Shown one piece after another: positions 1 through 8,385 of a DNA stretch of 42,783 bases. A program made the translations under genes and the position numbers. Within the stretch, counting starts at the first letter, position 1; every line of letters starts with the position of its first letter. The stretch lies in IMG/VR virus record IMGVR_UViG_2630968543_000005; one strand, given 5' to 3'. Below the pieces are notes generated by a model. It saw nothing but the letters and a program-made list of their open reading frames with translations. It was not told where the DNA came from and ran no database searches. Source of the DNA: a virus. Lineage: Duplodnaviria; Heunggongvirae; Uroviricota; Caudoviricetes.

Positions 1-2946
1 TTAGTGCTTCCCTTCTATTAAGTCTAACCTAGCTTTTATCTTATCCATTTCTCTGCGCTGCCATGCCGCCTCGATATAGAATAAGAGATCAGGTCTGACC
101 CCCCATCTAGATCCTGCTGGCGTTATTTCAACGCGCTCAATGATGTCTTCCATTACCATCACTGGATTATCATCCTCATCAACAATGATGCTCCCGTCAT
201 TATCAGTCAGCGGCATTTCCCTTTGGCCAGTAATGACGTCATCATATACTGCGGGATAATCGTCATAGCAAAGAAAGGCATAGCAGCATGTTGTGCTTTC
301 TTCTTCCATGAGTCCGTGAGAAATAAGAACATCACGAAGTTGCTGCGCGATTACACCATGATGTATCCTCGCCCCTTCTTCCCCCTTTATAGCGACAGCG
401 TTCAGCCATTTATAAGCGATATACCTGACGTCACCCCAGGCATCCAGCAATGCTTCGTCAGGAGAGACCGGCTCTGTCTTTAATGTTCCGTCACTGGTAA
501 CCACAGGATTGGAGCCAAGATAAACTATCGAGAACCTGTTTCCCGGACCACCAAGAGCATTTACATTATCAAGATAAGGTTTAACATCTCCGTTCTCAAA
601 AAGATGTTCGAGTGCGTTATATACCGCGCGACGTGGAGTACTGCTTCTGGAACCATGCAACGTTATCATTGCACCATCTGCTGAAGACGTTGTTTCACCG
701 CCGCTAACGATTAATCTCTGAGCGGTAACATCATCAGACGGTACTTTCTTCGCAATAATGGCGTAATTACCCTCAAGTTTGACTTCCGCGCGAACTTGTC
801 CTGATGTACCTGCATGGACAGTCAGTGACTGGACGGCAACATCATCTGTGAAATCAACGGGTACAGGAACCGTCCTCACGCCTGACGTCGACATAAAAGT
901 AGGAAGCGTTCTGTTAGGAGTGGCTCCGTAGACAAAATCCCTTGAAACAAATTCTTCCTGTTTAATTTTCACCCTGAAACAATACAAATCAGCCGGGTGA
1001 CCATCGTGAACATAAGGATATTTTCTGTTGTTATCCCCTATGCTCCATGGGTTTAGAAAATCTTCCCCACCGAAAATGTAGTACAGCCAGTTGTCTTTGA
1101 TACAAACTGAACCAACACCAACCGCAGAGTTAACTATTCCGCCCTGATAAATCTGATCAGTAACATTAACCCACTCTACATTATCCAGACTCCACTCATT
1201 GACGTTAACTCTGGTCATAAATGTTCTTGGATAATTTCCTGCATAACGGTTATCAGGTTCTCCTCCTTCCCACTCACCAAATGCGCGCTCACTGCCAAAA
1301 ATAACCAGCTCATCGCCAACTTTGGCAAAAGGAAGGTTTGAGTGATGAACATTATTTGGGAAGCGAAGAGAATTCCATGATGTACCTAAATCAGAGCTTC
1401 TGTGCAATGAACTACCGGGTTGAGTACTTAATGTCCCCCTGGTCGTCAGATACAGAATGCCATCATAATATTTTACACATGGCTCAGATGCATTCGCCTC
1501 ATATTCTGCAGGTATGCGTCTGCGAACAAAGCTACCAGGAGAACCGAAAGCATCAGAGAAATAGAGTATCCCAAGCTCGCGTGGACCAATATCACCATTA
1601 TGGTAGCCAACAGCAAAACTGTTATCGCTAATCGTCGCAAAACTGTGAATCTCAGTAACAGGAGTGCTTCCGTCAACAAAAGAAGGAATAGTTCCAAGAC
1701 TGGTTTTTCTCCATGGTGACGAGTGAAATGATGTGCCAAAACTCCAGTATCTACCCTCGTTATTCTGATCCACATCCTGGGTATTTTGCGTCGTAACTGT
1801 AAAGGTATTTTTATCAATAACAGTAGTCACCGTCATATTCCCGGTAACATCTGTAACACCAGAGTTTGAGAAGTTGACAAAATCACCAGCAAATAATCCG
1901 TGATCAGTAATGCGAATATAAGCGACTTGCTGATTTGCTGCTTTCGTTATACCACCATAAACGCGAAGGCTGCGACTCATTGGGCGATCCCACAACTCTG
2001 CAACCTGCAGTTTATTTCCTCTCACGGTCCGCGTCTCAATTACAGCAAAAAGGCGATTTCTGACAACCCCCATACTCATGCAGTGATAGTTAACTGTGGG
2101 ATAGTTTTCATGTAAATCTGTAAGCCATTCCGGCGTTGTCCAGGTCTTCCCGTCATCTCCTGAGCGAACCCATGCAACATGGAGGTTATTTACACCATGG
2201 CGGTCTCCAGCCATAAAAGGCGCATAGATGACATTGTCATATACAAACGTTTTATCCTGCGTCCAAGCGTTGTACCACGGTGTATCTGTAATTTTAAATA
2301 ACTCTCCCTGGATAAAATCTTCAGAAGCATAAAAAAGAGGCTGACCCGGTATTCTCTCAAATAAAAAACGAGCATTTTTAAATCGACTGACATCTGGAAG
2401 AGTTGATACTTTAAAAGTAAGCCCTCGCCCATCTATCTTTTCACCACCTGTTGCAACAGAAAGTAATTCTGATAGAGCTGATGTATCATCATGAACACCA
2501 TCACCAATAGCCCCCCAACCTCTTACATCATAACTGTCTCTCCATCTTGCTATCTGAAGTTTTGGGTATTTATTCGCTCCATCTGGGTCTTCTAATTGCT
2601 GCCGTAGTTGATCAGGGTCATACTTCAGCACATTAGGAAAATAGAACTGCTGCGCACCATACGCATCATAAACAGCCATAGAATGGCCTTGCACGGTAAC
2701 GAACTTGGCAATCTGTCCGTTATATACCGGATATCCAGCAGCGTTAATGATGATTGGTTGCGAAACAGGAACGTGAGAGCCGTCTTCGTTCTCCACATAA
2801 GCCTGAATCTGGTTTTCAGGATTTACCGGGTCAGTGTCAATTTTACCGATATAAATTTTGCCATTGGCTACAGCTTTAAAAGAACGCGCCATAGTGAAGA
2901 GTTGCGAAGGCATGCTTACCACAACATTTGCGGTGATATCTGTCAT
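1..2946 (-). CDS. Tailspike protein: P22 gp9-type head-binding N-terminal domain, putative endosialidase catalytic region, C-terminal intramolecular chaperone domain
   Basis: 981-aa ORF; N-terminus [10 protein letters not shown]...[21 protein letters not shown] resembles P22 tailspike head-binding domain; two Asp-box motifs ([16 protein letters not shown]) typical of sialidase beta-propellers; C-terminal ~150 aa ([11 protein letters not shown]...) resembles autocleaving chaperone domain of endosialidases/tail fibres; TAA stop at 1-3; GGAG RBS upstream of ATG at 2946. Confidence 0.8.
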
Positions 2947-3004
2947 TTAATTTGCTCCAGATACAAGGAATCGCCGCAGCGTAGCTACGGTGAATTTTGG
3001 GCAT

Positions 3005-3027
3005 AAAAAAACCCAGCCGAAGCTGGG
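3005..3027 (-). terminator. Rho-independent terminator candidate downstream of ant
   Basis: Minus-strand hairpin CCCAGC-TTCG-GCTGGG followed by 7 T. Confidence 0.5.
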
Positions 3028-3046
3028 TCGTTGCGTTGGTTATCTG

Positions 3047-3949
3047 TCAGTAGTTATGTACTGAAGGAGGTAATTTTTTATTCTTAAGTCTCATCCATGC
3101 GGAAAGATTCGTTGGTCCGTCTGGCTCATTGATATCAACATCTCGTGAGTGATTGATTAAAACGTCTCTCGCTATATCGATAATACGGGAGAACTCATAA
3201 CCGCAATCATGACATCTGCCGGAATAGTTCGATTGAATTTGTTTCAGCGCCGGATACAGTTCGCGGAATAATGCCTGTGAACGGTTGGCATAATCCCATA
3301 GCCATACAAGGCTGTTTGCTTCTTTTGCAGAAAGCTCGTTGGTTTTCTTCTCTTGTTTGCCGATGAACTCACCTTCAAGCACTACCCTGTGGATGTACTC
3401 TACGGCTTGCGGTATCTGAGATGCATCAAGCTCTTCAATACTTTCCACATTGAAACGCTGATGAATCATTGCATAAGCTTCTGGGTACATTAGATGCTTT
3501 TTGCTGACTAGCATATTTACAGCATCACGAAGCGGAGTCCTGTCATCAACAGATGTTTTCTTACGTGCATTTTCTGCCTTTCCCTTTGTCCAGTAGTCAT
3601 GCAGTACAGTAAAGCATTCTTCCTGGTACTGAATCAGTTTATCGCGGATGTCAGCTCGAACTTTCTCAGGGTTGATGCTGAACAGCCATCCATTTAACTT
3701 CTTCAAAGGAAGGCAGAGTAGCTTACGAAGCTTCCCATCAGCGGCAACCATATTCATATGAATACAGTTGAACTTATCTAGTTGTTTCATAAGTTTTTGT
3801 TGCTGAGTACCCCAACTCATTCCAAGGTTTTCAACGATTGGCTTCATCGCAACGTATGCAACTCCGGCAGCCATGGCGGTGATAATTTGCTGACCGTTGA
3901 ATGGTACGTAAGAGGTGTTCACTGCTTCTAAAATTGCTATACTATTCAT
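3047..3949 (-). CDS. ant: Antirepressor Ant (P22 immI type)
   Basis: ORF 3047-4015 trimmed to ATG at 3949 ([21 protein letters not shown]..., 300 aa) with GGAG RBS; position downstream of arc-like gene and upstream of tailspike as in P22. Confidence 0.7.
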
Positions 3950-4011
3950 GTTGGTTTTTCTCCACGGATTTACTGACAACCGAAGCCCTGACTGTTCCCG
4001 CAGTTGGGGCT

Positions 4012-4233
4012 TCACTGTTTTTGTAAGTCACTGTAGCTATAAAGCCACTGACCACTCATTTTTGATTTGATTGACTCTACTGAATCACGGCAAGGAATAA
4101 TTCCACCTGACATCATTCTGATCTCCGTAAATTCACCACTCCTTATCGACTCAATGCCATTAACGTTAACTAAAGATTTACCTCTACCAAGTGCATTCTC
4201 ATAGCCAATCTCATCAACCTCGATAAACTTCAT
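4012..4233 (-). CDS. Hypothetical small protein between arc and ant
   Basis: 73-aa ORF, ATG overlaps arc stop (ATGA), GAGGGGA RBS; no recognisable family. Confidence 0.35.
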
Positions 4234-4382
4234 ACCGTTATCCCCTCTCTCTTCAGGCTGTCCAGCAATCGCTTAATCACTTCCGAGTTAAACGACCGGC
4301 ATTCTTCTTTGGCCTTTCCTGTAATCGCATCTTTTAGCGACTGAGGCATTCTCACCAAAATTCTGCTAACTTCTTTTTCCAT
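4230..4382 (-). CDS. arc: Arc-like ribbon-helix-helix repressor
   Basis: MEKEVSRILVRMPQSLKDAITGKAKEECRSFNSEVIKRLLDSLKREG resembles P22 Arc RHH fold (..GRSVNSEIYQRVMESFKKEG); alternative upstream ATG at 4418. Confidence 0.6.
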   Translation of the reverse strand: MEKEVSRILVRMPQSLKDAITGKAKEECRSFNSEVIKRLLDSLKREGITV

Positions 4383-4491
4383 ATCGCCACCACGTGAGTT
4401 ATTGTGAATCACAAACATATCACCGTGACTATATCAAGTCAAAATTTTTTTGAATACACTGTGATATCAATGTGATTATCACGGTGTAAGT
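4383..4491. promoter_or_regulatory. immI divergent promoter/operator region (Pant/Pmnt-like)
   Basis: Palindromes TGTGAATCACA (4404-4414), TATCACCGTGA (4418-4428), ACACTGTGATA..TATCACGGTGT (4456-4487) between divergent arc and mnt starts. Confidence 0.5.
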
Positions 4492-4746
4492 ATGACGAAG
4501 GTTAGAGACATAGCCCCATATAGCGTAAGAATGCCAGATAGCCTCAAGCGCGACCTGACCATAAGAGCATCGAAAAACGGACGCTCATTAAATTCAGAAA
4601 TAGTTATGATCTTGCAAGCTGCTATTGATGAAGAAAAATCACCAAGATCAATAGAAGGTTTTGCTCAACAAGAATCTGAAAAATTTAGGGAGGCTCTTCT
4701 TAAGACTCTCAGCAGCATGTACGGAGAAGATAAAAAACCCACCTGA
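4492..4746 (+). CDS. mnt: Mnt-like ribbon-helix-helix repressor
   Basis: 84 aa; ..RMPDSLKRDLTIRASKNGRSLNSEIVMILQAAI.. resembles P22 Mnt N-terminal RHH; divergent from arc as in P22. Confidence 0.6.
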   Translation: MTKVRDIAPYSVRMPDSLKRDLTIRASKNGRSLNSEIVMILQAAIDEEKSPRSIEGFAQQESEKFREALLKTLSSMYGEDKKPT

Positions 4747-4756
4747 CGGTGGGTTT
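4735..4756. terminator. Bidirectional rho-independent terminator between mnt and the 322-aa gene
   Basis: AAACCCACC-TGAC-GGTGGGTTT hairpin flanked by A-run upstream and T-rich tract downstream; mnt stop codon lies in the loop. Confidence 0.5.
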
Positions 4757-4761
4757 CATAA

Positions 4762-5730
4762 TTAGATTTCTGGTTTCATTCTTCCAAAAACCTTTTCTAT
4801 TCCTTTTTCGTATTCTTCTCTTGTCTCACTCATCGCTGCGACCCCAAGAAGCTTACCGATATGCTGACGCAAAGCCTTGACACCAATTTCAGAAAGGAAC
4901 AGATGCAACTTATCAGATTGTTTTCCGTTCTCGTCTCGGCTGGCTCGAATCTGTTCAAGGATTTTACCTTTACTCTTTGCTAGCGGGGTGTATATCTGCA
5001 TGTTGGTTAGCTGCCCAAAACGAATAGGCCGTCCTTTCTCTGGCCTATTCAGGCCGTACAATCGATACCACTCCTCGTATAACTCATCTGGAAATTCCTT
5101 TTCATATTGACGAGCCTCTTCACGAACAAACGCTTTGAACTCGTCAATGACAGCCTGAACTTCTGGACGATAACCAGCAAGCGCATACGCAACCCCCTTA
5201 ATTCCCGCCTTAGCGGAGGCATTAATAAGTCTCTGCGCTGCAGCCGCGGCCTTTAACCGTGATTGTGGTAGGTCGTCATTATCTTTTGCTTCTATTAGTG
5301 CCCTACCAATATCAACAATTGCTGTAATGTCATAACCTAACGCTTGATGAACGGTTTTAGACTTCGAAGTAAGTTGAAATTTATAGGGATTTTCCATTTT
5401 TCGCTGCAATTCTAGATCTCGGTATTTGCTCATATACTGAGCGCCAAGCAGTTGATCTAAATCCCTGGCATGTTCACCAATCCCTAACAACTGAGATAAT
5501 CCAGTTTTCGTAACAACAACAGTTTTCGACTCGTCATCCAGTACATAACATTCAGCATCAATGCCAAAATCATCTAAAAAGTTACCACGATGAGTTGCCC
5601 TGAGAATCTTACTTTTCCATCTTGCAGCCGCTGCTTTCTTTGCTATTTCAGAACGCTGCTCTTTAGTCAGCGACTTTGCGCGAGCGATCCCGCCCTTAGC
5701 TTTCCCTTCGCCACTTTTCTTTTCAGTCAT
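4762..5730 (-). CDS. Hypothetical 322-aa protein with basic N-terminal motif; accessory gene at the P22 sieA-equivalent position
   Basis: ORF 4762-5793 trimmed to ATG 5730 (MTEKKSGEGKAKGGIARAKSLTKEQRSEIAKKAAAARW...) with AAGGTG RBS; no transmembrane segment; not a recognisable virion protein. Confidence 0.55.
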   Translation of the reverse strand: MTEKKSGEGKAKGGIARAKSLTKEQRSEIAKKAAAARWKSKILRATHRGNFLDDFGIDAECYVLDDESKTVVVTKTGLSQLLGIGEHARDLDQLLGAQYMSKYRDLELQRKMENPYKFQLTSKSKTVHQALGYDITAIVDIGRALIEAKDNDDLPQSRLKAAAAAQRLINASAKAGIKGVAYALAGYRPEVQAVIDEFKAFVREEARQYEKEFPDELYEEWYRLYGLNRPEKGRPIRFGQLTNMQIYTPLAKSKGKILEQIRASRDENGKQSDKLHLFLSEIGVKALRQHIGKLLGVAAMSETREEYEKGIEKVFGRMKPEI

Positions 5731-5886
5731 AATGCAAGCACCTTTATTGTGTTGTATGCTTGCATTATATACACTGTACACACATACAAGCAAGCATAAA
5801 ACTAAAACAAAATGCTTGCATTACAACCGCGCTACTCCAACTACACATTATCATCTGGTATCCTGCTCAAAACTAAGGAGGTTGGT
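5731..5886. promoter_or_regulatory. Divergent intergenic region with four ATGC-N2-GCAT type palindromic repeats
   Basis: ATGCAAGCA 5732-5740, ATGCTTGCAT 5756-5765, AAGCAAGCAT 5788-5797, ATGCTTGCAT 5812-5821; RBS TAAGGAGG at 5874-5881. Confidence 0.4.
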
Positions 5887-6216
5887 GTGCTTGAATGGTT
5901 TCTGTTGGCTGCATTAGTCGTTTCTGGTTTGGTGTATGAGTATCGAATGCACTCTCTAACAAAAAAAATAGGAATTCTAGAAAACGAATATTGTGCTCTC
6001 AAATCCTCACTGGAACGTGAGCAAGGGGACTTAAAAATCTCTCTGTCTAGCATTGAGCGTTCTATAGAGAGCTTAGAGGATAAGGTTGATCGTATAAAGA
6101 ATGAGGATATTCATGATATTAAGGACGACATATCCTTCTTAAAATCTTGGTTGAAAAATGTTGGGAAAATTGCCACATCAACACGAGATAAGCTCAATCC
6201 ATCCATGGATGACTAA
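5887..6216 (+). CDS. Hypothetical membrane-anchored coiled-coil protein (109 aa)
   Basis: In-frame GTG at 5887 five nt after TAAGGAGG; N-terminal hydrophobic helix LEWFLLAALVVSGLVY then heptad-like charged region; stop abuts gp16-like stop back to back (TAATTA). Confidence 0.5.
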   Translation: MLEWFLLAALVVSGLVYEYRMHSLTKKIGILENEYCALKSSLEREQGDLKISLSSIERSIESLEDKVDRIKNEDIHDIKDDISFLKSWLKNVGKIATSTRDKLNPSMDD

Positions 6217-8385
6217 TTACTCCTGTGCCATTCCGCTTAGCGATGCCACAATTCCAGCTCTTGCTAAACGCTGGAACTCTTCGTTTCCTAGTGCCTCGCG
6301 TATTGCTTTTACGGCGGCCTTATTTGCCATAAATCTGCGTTCCGCCGCCGCTAATGCGCCATCACTTGCCCCAACCTTAACTGCCTTTGTTGCCTCTTGA
6401 ACAGCCTTTTCAATAGCGTAACGACCGCTTCTAGTTGCGGATAATTTCGCTATCGCTCCTTTTGCCATTGCATCAATTGCCCCACCTGCAGCGCCACCCG
6501 CTATTGCTCCAATAACGCCTCCTCCAGAGAACCCTGCGATAGTGCCAGTAGTTCTAAAAGCGCCAGACAATGCGCTCTCTAAAACTGGATGAAGGCCATT
6601 CTCAAGAGTGCTAATGGCTGGCATAGATCGCCCTGTCTGTTCAACATATCGAAGTGGCTTTGTTGCTGCTCGTGCAAGTTCTCCGTATGAACTTGTAATC
6701 CTGCCAAGTTCTGGAGAATATCGACTAATTGCCTTCACGTTTTGTGGGGTAAGAATAGTCGCGATATGCTTAATTCCAGCCTCTTCAGACTTACCTCCGC
6801 GTACCCCTTGCGACATTGCATCTTGTAATATTGATGCAATTGCTGGCGCGCGTTCCGACTCAGGTAGGGCGCTTATTATTTTATGGAACTGACCTGTTCC
6901 ACTTTTTGCTGAACCCTGTAACGCCTTAGATCCATTAGTTACCAACTGATCAGTTGCAAGGTCTCTACCAAACGCTGCTTCAGCCTGTTCTTGTGCTGTA
7001 AATCTTGCCTTTGACAGATCATTAGCTTTTTGCCAGTCATCAAGAAAACCGCCATTTTGAGCCATTATGCGCATATCTTCCGTTGCTGCATCACGAAGCT
7101 CAGCCATGCGCCTTGCCGTATTTGCCTCACCAGACCTTATATACTTCTGCTCTGCGTCAGCAAGTTTACTTCGCCATGCCTTCATGGCATCAAACGTGAT
7201 TCCTTTTTTACCAGTTTTAGCATAAGCAGATGCGAATTGTTTCATCTCAGGAGTTAGCGGCATGCCAGCCAAAATATCACCCTGAATTGTAGCGTTCAGG
7301 TTTGACATTCTGGCCTTTGCGTCAGGCATCGTGGAGCGGACGCTATCCCATGCGGCCTTTTCTGAATTTTTCATTTTATCAATACTTGCCAAAACCCTTT
7401 GTTTTATGGCTGCACTTTTTTCTGATGCAGTTCCTGCTTCAGCCCCAAATTCATCCAATGCTGAGTTAAATTTCGACTCTATTTCACTGAATGCTTTGGT
7501 GTGTGCATCCTGTGTAATTCCGGGCTTTGACGCCAGAATCCCCTCCGCCTGAGCAAGACCACGACTACCTGATCTCATGCCAGGAGTTAATGCGTTGATA
7601 TCTATTCCAGCAGTATCTGCTGCTTTTGCTATTTCGTCTGACACATTAGCTGACTGTCTGGCAATAATCTCTCTTCCTGTACCAGACTTTGCCATTTTCG
7701 AAACATCAGCAGCGGAATTTATTGCCCCGCCACCAAGAACTTGAGGTGATTTAGAGGTTAAGATCCTTCCAGCCCCAGAAAGTATCCCCTGAGCACCAAT
7801 ATTGATACCACCGTTAATGGCAGCATTTTGTGCAAAGTCGCCCTCCTGATTTGCAGCATCAGCAAGAGAACCTGCAATCATGTTTCCTGCGGAACCGATA
7901 TCTCCAGCGAGCTTTGCTGGCGCTCCAGCAGCTTTTGCCGCTGTGCCAATTGGCAGGAGATACCCACCAATTGTTTCACCGGCTTGCGCGTAAGGGTCTG
8001 TCGGTCGATCGACTGGACGATAGACATCATCCAAAACCTTGGGGCCACCAAGCCCCTGGCTGATTGCATTAATCAGACTTGCGCCACCCTGCAATACGTC
8101 AAATGGTATGTTTACCAGACCACGACCAGCCTGCTCTGCAATTTGCCCTGCACTTTGACCACCAGTGAGCCAATCGCCAGCTTGTTGCATCAATGATGGT
8201 TCTTCTTTCTGCTGCTGAGGTGGAGGGTATGCTGCATAAAACTGATCTCTTGCTTCAGCCCATTTGTCACCAGCCTTAGGGGCAACAACCTCATCAAAAT
8301 ATTGCGCTTGAGCCTGTGCTTTCTGTTCTTCAGTTAACGCCTGATACTGTGGAGAGGCGATAACATCTTTCCATGCTTTAGCCAT
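6217..8385 (-). CDS. Ejection/injection protein (P22 gp16-like, positional)
   Basis: 722-aa Ala/Gly/Gln-rich ORF last in the gp7-gp20-gp16 ejection-protein series. Confidence 0.6.

Follow-up and report, generated by a model that had tools for sequence, protein, structure and literature searches.

In the phages P22 and epsilon34 the immI (secondary immunity) region lies between a gene-16-type DNA transfer gene and the tailspike gene (PMC2629481). As annotated, both genomes have only a 68-nucleotide (nt) spacer between arc and ant, filled by the sar antisense RNA. The locus described here occupies the equivalent place, within a variable "ant moron", in a stretch of 42,783 nt (the window) from a virus of the Caudoviricetes (IMG/VR record IMGVR_UViG_2630968543_000005), and it shares with P22 and epsilon34 the gene order and orientation, a 17-nt spacer in the promoter Pant, the promoter Psar together with sar, and an Ant protein that is 85% identical to P22 Ant. 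Palindromes overlap Pant in both P22 and the window, where those of P22 bind repressors and those found here are candidates for doing so. The differences are that Arc' and Mnt' are other alleles, that the candidate operators (CACNGTGATA and TTGTGATTCACAA) differ from P22 Oarc (ATGATAGAAGCACTCTACTAT) and Omnt (AGGTCCACGGTGGACCT), that the arc-mnt spacer is 109 nt rather than 90 nt, and that arc and sar, with no gene between them in P22, are separated here by a 73-codon gene coupled to arc, called orf73. The original prediction for this DNA, which proposed Arc-, Mnt- and Ant-like genes and an ORF between arc and ant without a known counterpart in P22, is correct on both counts, the three families being confirmed by Pfam (Table 1).

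On the minus strand the order is Pant-like promoter, arc', orf73 and ant, with mnt' divergent on the plus strand; the interval 4012–4491 thus comprises orf73 and arc' (both minus strand) and the 109-bp arc-mnt control region. Window bases 3000–5900 are 100% identical to Escherichia phage vB_EcoP-611R6 (ON470589.1; genus Lederbergvirus, P22-like), and the phage locus is an ordinary variant of P22-type immI whose sequence is already in GenBank. That it encodes a P22-type immI circuit with an operator specificity of its own can be stated with high confidence.

Inspection of the junctions of orf73 reveals how closely the gene is fitted between its neighbors. Its ATG overlaps the TGA of arc in GGTATGAAG (context GGGGATAACGGTATGAAG), and the purine-rich GAGAGAGGGG is placed 8–10 nt upstream of the ATG, an arrangement consistent with the translational coupling that had been proposed. 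This Shine-Dalgarno (SD) sequence is carried by the last ∼35 nt of arc. At the other end, the stop codon (4012–4014) is the TGA of TGA-AGCCCCAACTGC and abuts the sar hairpin. In every locus inspected, which included Salmonella phage Emek, Escherichia coli prophages, Salmonella contigs and IMG/VR contigs, orf73 lies directly downstream of arc and overlaps it, and ant follows wherever the available sequence is long enough. The most distant relative (P0008, 84 residues, 68% identity) retains a GTGA start-stop overlap and the junction of TGA and hairpin, its 1.1-kb contig stopping ∼40 nt into the downstream open reading frame (ORF). A variant of 90 residues on a 75-kb NCBI contig (P0001) has lost the stop codon and reads through the sar terminator, an indication that natural variants without the TGA-hairpin junction can arise.

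The conservation of orf73 bears on whether the 73 codons are a gene at all, because a chance or decaying frame in an enlarged arc-ant spacer might also account for their presence. Consistent with such a frame, orf73 has no significant match to a curated family, one of the neighboring cargo types described below is often frameshifted, and the family is very narrow. A word-indexed search of 5.8 billion proteins, with the single sequence and with a profile, yields only about eight clusters of relatives, all of them close, and an exhaustive phmmer scan of 1.84 billion representatives yields two real matches, one true distant homolog (P0008) and one fragment; a third phmmer match, the 541-residue low-complexity repeat protein P0009, was judged spurious. 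However, the ratio of nonsynonymous to synonymous substitution rates (dN/dS, Nei-Gojobori) between orf73 and its 68%-identical homolog is 0.12–0.24 with dS greater than 1, which indicates purifying selection on orf73. Reading frame, overlap at the start and place of the stop are all kept across Escherichia and Salmonella phages and prophages. An alignment of nine family members has 41 invariant columns, its sole gap being an 11-residue insertion in the 84-residue relative. Among 5426 complete E. coli genomes, 50 carry orf73 at full length, with an annotation as a hypothetical protein and with the frame intact in all 50, and the predicted fold is confident. A frame arising by chance or in decay is therefore highly improbable, and the non-coding reading was rejected on the dN/dS values. 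orf73 is a real, conserved protein-coding gene, as first suggested from the sequence, and is already catalogued, both as PHROG 11805 (function unknown) and under the name "orf73" in the annotation of Salmonella phage vB_SemP_Emek. The Emek protein (AFM54340.1) is 96% identical and has the same arc-ant position and ATGA overlap, whereas the genes around it encode a P22-type Arc N-terminus, another Mnt and another Ant N-terminal domain.

The association of orf73 with its neighbors is loose. The arc'-mnt' module (4230–4753) is found at 95–99% identity in 732 E. coli genomes, a set that includes lambdoid O145 and O157 prophages having the module among their tail genes; ∼680 of these 732 genomes lack orf73 and 50 carry it. 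Conversely, orf73 accompanies at least two Arc types, that of the window and a P22 type with replaced last residues, the Arc 3' end being common to three Arc types. The Mnt types found with it number three or more, and the Ant N-terminal regions four or more; the latter have 27–47% identity over the first 150 residues and are followed by a C-terminal domain with 82–92% identity. orf73 lies outside the core immI circuit, as a cargo gene that occupies a fixed slot. In one lambdoid long-tailed prophage (L008; NZ_CP028379.1, 1417742–1421265) an arc'-mnt' module of ∼99% identity, accompanied by an Ant with a different N-terminal domain, has the tail genes L and K (C40 peptidase) on either side, from which it follows that the immI module moves between podovirus-type and siphovirus-type late operons.

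Type II toxin-antitoxin systems typically have a gene for a ribbon-helix-helix protein whose end shares 4 nt with the start of a small ORF downstream. The arrangement of arc and orf73 matches this layout, and orf73 could accordingly be a partner of the proteins of its operon, modulating Arc or Ant, serving one of them as a chaperone, or acting as the toxin-like counterpart to the ribbon-helix-helix protein. The retention of coupling in the 68%-identical homolog by means of the GTGA overlap would suit such a partnership, as would the occurrence of an Ant with the conserved C-terminal domain in all orf73 loci of sufficient length. Nevertheless, the identical Arc' occurs without orf73 in hundreds of genomes (the ∼680 noted above), and the Arc N-termini found with orf73 are of two or more unrelated types, in addition to the four or more Ant N-termini. 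Arc' itself, at 50 residues, has no toxin-neutralizing extension, and orf73 has no match to toxin or defense families. Furthermore, cargos unrelated to orf73 use the same coupling, which makes the coupling a property of the slot. We consider a partner role for orf73 quite improbable, and the toxin-antitoxin reading was rejected because arc' and orf73 do not obligately co-occur.

The slot itself was delineated by its flanks. In E. coli Survcare253 (L005:1573–1776, minus strand) the same arc' and ant surround an unannotated 67-codon CxxC…CxxC ORF that has the identical ATGA start overlap and TGA-hairpin end. Scanning IMG/VR for the arc 3' end returned 47 loci; each contains a coupled ORF of one of five types, which in 11 loci survives only as a frameshifted remnant. 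Scanning for the sar hairpin returned at least 120 loci, and the ∼111 that could be classified served as the sample for cargo counts: in 57 an Arc-type gene abuts sar as in P22, and in ∼47 (about 40%) a cargo intervenes. At least eight unrelated cargo types occur at the junction, namely a 67-residue zinc ribbon (15 intact and 4 frameshifted loci), a 57-residue protein without a family match (10 loci), orf73 (6 loci), an 89-residue transmembrane/coiled-coil protein (5 loci), an 80-residue protein, orf80 (2 loci), a 74-residue zinc ribbon (2 loci), a 60-residue ClpX C4 zinc finger (2 loci), and a 63-residue zinc ribbon (1 locus). At all junctions inspected, one or two loci per cargo type, the cargo starts in an (A/G)TGA that overlaps the arc stop and ends in a TGA joined directly to the hairpin, and TGA-AGCCCCAACTGC is found after every cargo type in the IMG/VR loci. 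Because at least eight unrelated cargo types occupy ∼47 of ∼111 loci between conserved flanks, the arc 3' end on the left and the sar hairpin on the right, the arc-sar junction fits the concept of a phage accessory region, or moron slot. As in the phage accessory regions and morons described previously (Silas et al., 2023, preprint; Villafane et al., 2008), unrelated small genes alternate between conserved flanks and some have decayed. The arc-sar slot differs from these in being nested in a regulatory operon and in having promoterless cargo, since the overlapping stop and start tie translation of the cargo to the upstream repressor gene.

Four of the cargos are small CxxC...CxxC zinc-ribbon ORFs of 67, 74, 63 and 60 residues (Survcare253 L005; IMG/VR L110, L088, L022 and L019). 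The 60-residue protein matches Pfam PF06689 at 43 bits, compared with a gathering score of 27, and a free ClpX N-domain made by the phage might act as a decoy for the recognition of substrates or adaptors by ClpXP. The 67-residue zinc-ribbon cassette was detected in 373 E. coli genomes and is never annotated in RefSeq. A 1-nt frameshift (MSKECCFLRH*) interrupts it in the O145 RM9872 prophage (L008:1238–1500) and in 11 of the 47 IMG/VR loci, and most of ∼300 E. coli copies at 95–99% identity, mainly in O157 and O145 strains, appear to be the frameshifted 198-nt form. In these copies the slot contains a cargo in decay.

The structure of the orf73 product was predicted with AlphaFold2 from a six-sequence alignment, giving a model with a predicted local distance difference test score (pLDDT) of 83.6 and a predicted template modeling score of 0.71; three of the five models scored above 77. 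The predicted monomer consists of strands 2–8, 19–23, 27–32, 36–40 and 45–48, a helix at 52–59 and a tail, which is the order of elements in SwrD/FlbD, where β1-β2, a 3-10 turn and β3–5 precede a C-terminal helix, with one additional N-terminal strand. The structural neighbors of the model are RemA, LytTR domains and phage proteins annotated as FlbD: Foldseek against BFVD returned many small phage proteins with template modeling (TM) scores of 0.6–0.8, several of them annotated "Flagellar and swarming motility protein" (FlbD). Chains of the ClpX adaptor SspB also appeared in the Foldseek output against the PDB, without significance (probabilities of 0.1–0.3, TM scores of ∼0.3), and are probably noise; they deserve mention only in view of the ClpX zinc-finger cargos of the slot. 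The predicted core of five strands and a helix is shared with SwrD/FlbD (PF06289), a hexameric ring encoded in flagellar operons, and with RemA (DUF370), an octameric ring that wraps DNA, whereas the additional N-terminal strand and the C-terminal tail set orf73 apart from both. orf73 differs further from SwrD in being phage-encoded, in a non-flagellar context, in Enterobacteria, which lack SwrD.

Sequence comparison points to the same family. Three family members match Pfam FlbD at sub-threshold E-values of 0.04–0.09 in one register, residues 18–59 on profile positions 10–51, and MAFFT gives the same register; a FlbD consensus scored as FlbD at 119 bits and shows that the numbering of the profile is that of SwrD. 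In this register the family-invariant residues N23, I27, E28 and T36 fall on Asn15, Ile19, Glu20 and Thr28 of SwrD, so that its Asn-xxx-Ile-Glu and Thr positions are invariant in the orf73 family, while Pro26 and Asp27 are not conserved. Asn15-xxx-Ile19 is described as the pore motif of hexameric SwrD rings (2026 preprint, PMC13232269). The sister cargo orf80 matches FlbD at an E-value of 1.7e-4 and 21.5 bits, below the gathering score of 24.7 bits, and is a FlbD family protein according to NCBI. Searching the PDB by sequence with orf73 returned no relative, the single match (FAIM1) being weak and local, and tblastn searches of the phage collection with orf80 and the FlbD consensus returned nothing useful for context.

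A possible function for orf73 is that of a third DNA-binding regulator of the RemA/LytTR type, binding or wrapping phage or host DNA, for instance at Pant or Pmnt, on late read-through into the tailspike gene, or at host promoters. Its place within a regulatory operon would be appropriate for such a regulator, and the paralogous cargo orf80 is basic (isoelectric point 9.4). However, Arg50, Arg51 and Arg53 of RemA, which lie in a helical insertion between β3 and β4 on a basic outer face of the protein, are required for DNA binding (PMC8481266), and in the orf73 model the β3-β4 connection is a 3-residue turn (S32-G33-E34) in which this insertion is missing. The protein is moreover acidic, with an isoelectric point of 5.3 and a net charge of −1.5, and SwrD, its closest sequence family, resembles RemA and LytTR without their DNA-binding elements (PMC13232269). 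Modules with identical arc', mnt' and operators also occur without orf73 or with unrelated cargos. A DNA-binding regulator is thus unlikely, and we do not think that orf73 binds DNA in the manner of RemA, given the missing arginine insertion and the acidic isoelectric point. We propose instead, with moderate confidence and on the basis of the model and the sub-threshold Pfam matches, that orf73 encodes a small acidic β-protein with the SwrD/FlbD-RemA (LytTR-related) fold that would act like a SwrD-type ring through protein contacts. Membership of orf73 in PF06289 is not demonstrated, as its score is under the gathering threshold.

The control region upstream of arc' contains the predicted Pant, which aligns with P22 Pant in its hexamers and its 17-nt spacer and is the sole sigma-70-like site found by promoter scan in 3850–4800. 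The same scan found no convincing Pmnt; TTGAAT-18-GATTAT at 4450–4479 is a weak candidate read by eye. A 62-residue Arc annotated in GenBank (ON470589, ATG at 4418) was rejected because its start codon lies inside the predicted -10 hexamer TATGTT of Pant, upstream of the likely start of the transcript; the 50-residue Arc starting at 4382 (SD GGTGG), as annotated in RefSeq prophages, is more plausible.

The original prediction also named three palindromes in this region as consistent with operators of the Arc/Mnt type with sequences different from those of P22. The first, TGTGAATCACA (4403–4413), stands and lies within a perfect 6-1-6 palindrome over the predicted Pant start, at about the position of Omnt in P22. 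The second, TATCACCGTGA (4418–4428), stands only in part, as its palindromic portion is limited to TCACCGTGA (4420–4428, 4-1-4). The third, the inverted repeat just before the mnt ATG, is confirmed with arms of 12 nt (4455–4466 and 4477–4488), of which 11 are complementary, and contains two copies of the 10-mer CACNGTGATA. The remaining copy of CACNGTGATA, at 4418–4427, fills the Pant spacer and overlaps the -10 hexamer, the place of Oarc in P22. The core TCACGGTGA is similar to the P22 Omnt core CCACGGTGG.

These sites are enriched beyond expectation. CACNGTGATA occurs three times in the whole window, all within 4418–4486, compared with 0.21 expected, and none of 100 shuffles reaches three. 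Inverted repeats, counted with arms of at least 5 nt and loops of at most 12 nt, number eight versus 2.75 ± 2.1 in dinucleotide shuffles (∼3% of shuffles reach eight), and GTGA/TCAC occurs in eight copies versus 1.9 ± 1.2, a count reached by none of 2000 shuffles. Related immI regions carry the sites as well: the 4402–4414 palindrome is kept in the modules of Survcare253, L009 and L010, has one mismatch in an O145 prophage, and is replaced by TCTTTTGTATTCGAAAAGA in a second allele, allele B (SW070919, EC416 and ten IMG/VR loci). In allele B all three CACNGTGATA positions read CAC(C)TTTGNTA. This coordinated change of all sites, together with the enrichment, supports the view that the palindromes and half-sites are putative Arc/Mnt operators, unlike those of P22 in sequence and overlapping the predicted Pant core and the mnt start. 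The N-terminus of Mnt is strongly divergent in allele B (MAKGVSISPTTVRIP versus MTKVRDIAPYSVRMP), whereas the allele-B Arc has only few and conservative differences, and L009 and L010, which combine a window-type Mnt N-terminus with an altered Arc, retain window-type sites. The sites thus track the Mnt N-terminus and not the changes in Arc, which hints that Mnt' may be the reader of the CACNGTGATA sites.

At the opposite end of the slot, the suggested search for a sar-like antisense RNA was positive, with a full-length match to the Rfam model (Table 1). sar is complementary to the ant leader and ribosome-binding site and reaches over the orf73 stop codon at its 3' end. Psar (GTGTTCACTGCTTCTAAAATTGCTATACT), located by homology only, is one base off the annotated P22 Psar and the same as that of epsilon34. 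At the nucleotide level the similarity to P22 extends through ant and sar and breaks off within a few bases of the orf73 stop (window ∼4015–4022); the P22 arc ends at the equivalent point, with its stop codon just upstream of the same hairpin.

From this arrangement a course of expression may be proposed, in large part by analogy with P22. Pant, a strong promoter as predicted, would drive arc'-orf73-ant, with mnt' transcribed divergently. In lysogens Mnt' would hold Pant off, and after infection Arc' would shut Pant down following a short burst, while sar would cover the ant ribosome-binding site and block translation of Ant from late read-through transcripts. With its SD sequence inside the last arc codons and its start on the arc stop, orf73 would be translated with Arc; because it would also lie upstream of the sar block, it is expected to be made both in the immediate-early burst from Pant and again from late-operon read-through. 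Cargos would be exchanged by homologous recombination between the ∼35-nt arc 3' end and the sar hairpin. The Orf73 protein may form a ring oligomer and make protein-protein contacts with a target of the host or of a competitor phage early in infection, in an accessory role that could be one of takeover or counter-defense.

That orf73 is an accessory cargo which would be translated with Arc, in the early burst and from late read-through as P22 would lead one to expect, can be held with good confidence. The reading as a whole, a functional-looking immI module with orf73 as its coupled, accessory, SwrD-like cargo, is the one we favor and regard as reasonably probable. Several observations nevertheless weigh against it. 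The timing of expression, the coupling and the oligomeric state are derived from sequence and from knowledge of P22. Two of the five AlphaFold2 models are poor (pLDDT 49 and 42), and Foldseek against the PDB, in which SwrD was not among the structures searched, gave no significant match, RemA reaching a probability of 0.6–0.8; the closest solved structures to orf73 are DNA-binding proteins, which leaves some probability to a role in DNA binding. The FlbD scores are under the gathering score for orf73 (12.8 bits) as well as for P0003 (13.3 bits) and P0008 (14.0 bits), and the hhalign probability for FlbD is low (∼5%), although the register is the same as in the hidden Markov model match. Searches of NCBIfam and PADLOC with orf73 gave no match and no PADLOC or anti-defense signature, and the literature search found no paper on the arc-ant gene or on phage FlbD-like proteins. 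Finally, the 67-residue cargo is frameshifted in many prophages, so that cargos may be dispensable or neutral passengers.

The features of the locus and its surroundings are collected in Table 1. The right edge of the arc'-mnt' mosaic module is marked by the hairpin shared by mnt' and the convergent P63C gene, and in E. coli genomes the module stops at ∼4753. The P63C-domain gene and the ORF for a predicted membrane/coiled-coil protein, the latter with weak family matches, are further genes of the ant moron, and in their place relatives hold HicAB, a Panacea-domain protein or a ClpP-like protease. The tailspike combines a P22 head-binding domain with a complete endosialidase that includes an S74 chaperone domain; because of this endosialidase the phage is predicted to target a polysialic-acid (K1-type) capsule, like CUS-3.

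Table 1. Positions of genes, RNA and candidate regulatory sites in and around the immI locus of the window.
Feature	Position	Strand	Basis
Tailspike gene	1–2946	-	Pfam End_beta_propel 1.4e-232
ant, antirepressor, 300 residues	3047–3949	-	Pfam P22_AR_N 8.6e-45, P22_AR_C 1.1e-27; annotated Ant in ON470589
Psar, inside ant 5' end	3915–3943	+	homology
sar antisense RNA	3950–4016	+	Rfam RF00262, 87.7 bits (gathering score 43), E 1.9e-18
sar terminator hairpin (14 pairs, 3982–4013) and T-run	3982–4021	+	terminator scan
orf73, 73 codons	4012–4233	-	ATG overlapping arc stop (ATGA); PHROG 11805
arc', Arc-family ribbon-helix-helix repressor, 50 residues	4230–4382	-	Pfam Arc 5.6e-11
Perfect 6-1-6 palindrome TTGTGA(A/T)TCACAA, TTGTGAATCACAA	4402–4414		inverted-repeat analysis
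Predicted Pant: TTGACT, 17 nt, TATGTT; TG before -10	4414–4442	-	promoter scan; P22 Pant position and spacing
Candidate operator half-site CACNGTGATA, copy 1	4418–4427	-	motif count
Candidate operator half-site CACNGTGATA, copy 2	4457–4466	+	motif count
Candidate operator half-site CACNGTGATA, copy 3	4477–4486	-	motif count
mnt', Mnt-like ribbon-helix-helix repressor, 84 residues	4492–4746	+	Pfam Arc 7.3e-9, FitA-like ribbon-helix-helix 8.5e-8; PHROG 2685 9.6e-38
Terminator-like hairpin, 3' ends of mnt' and P63C gene	4734–4757	-	terminator scan
P63C-domain protein	4762–5730	-	Pfam 7.7e-14
Predicted membrane/coiled-coil ORF, 134 residues	5812–6216	+	
Gene-16-type DNA transfer gene	6217–8385	-	

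The immI system itself is already known, as is orf73 in the form of a hypothetical protein in databases. What is added is modest, namely the structural assignment of orf73 and the recognition of a coupled cargo slot, which is occupied in about 40% of the sar-bearing loci sampled; the literature search found no paper describing either. CACNGTGATA and its allele-B counterpart constitute a natural specificity pair for the study of recognition by ribbon-helix-helix repressors, and the slot is a compact, genetically tractable source of candidate accessory genes to screen. Its contents connect it to two wider subjects: orf73 and orf80 link it to the SwrD/FlbD-RemA fold, which is widespread in phage genomes without assigned function, and the zinc-finger cargos point to ClpX. 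The P22 immI circuit of Arc, Mnt, sar and Ant is a textbook example of regulation; its operon would also serve as a platform from which small, exchangeable effectors are expressed, a role absent from textbook accounts. More tentatively, and as a possibility that we rate well below even chances, the arc-sar junction may be a dedicated slot for immediate-early, arc-coupled effectors of host takeover or counter-defense, comprising SwrD/FlbD-like rings (orf73 and orf80), free ClpX-type zinc fingers, a membrane protein and others, some of which might target proteolysis dependent on ClpXP and SspB. If this should prove true, a role would for the first time be defined for a SwrD-like protein of phages, and orf73 would provide a handle on the many small FlbD-like proteins in phage genomes.

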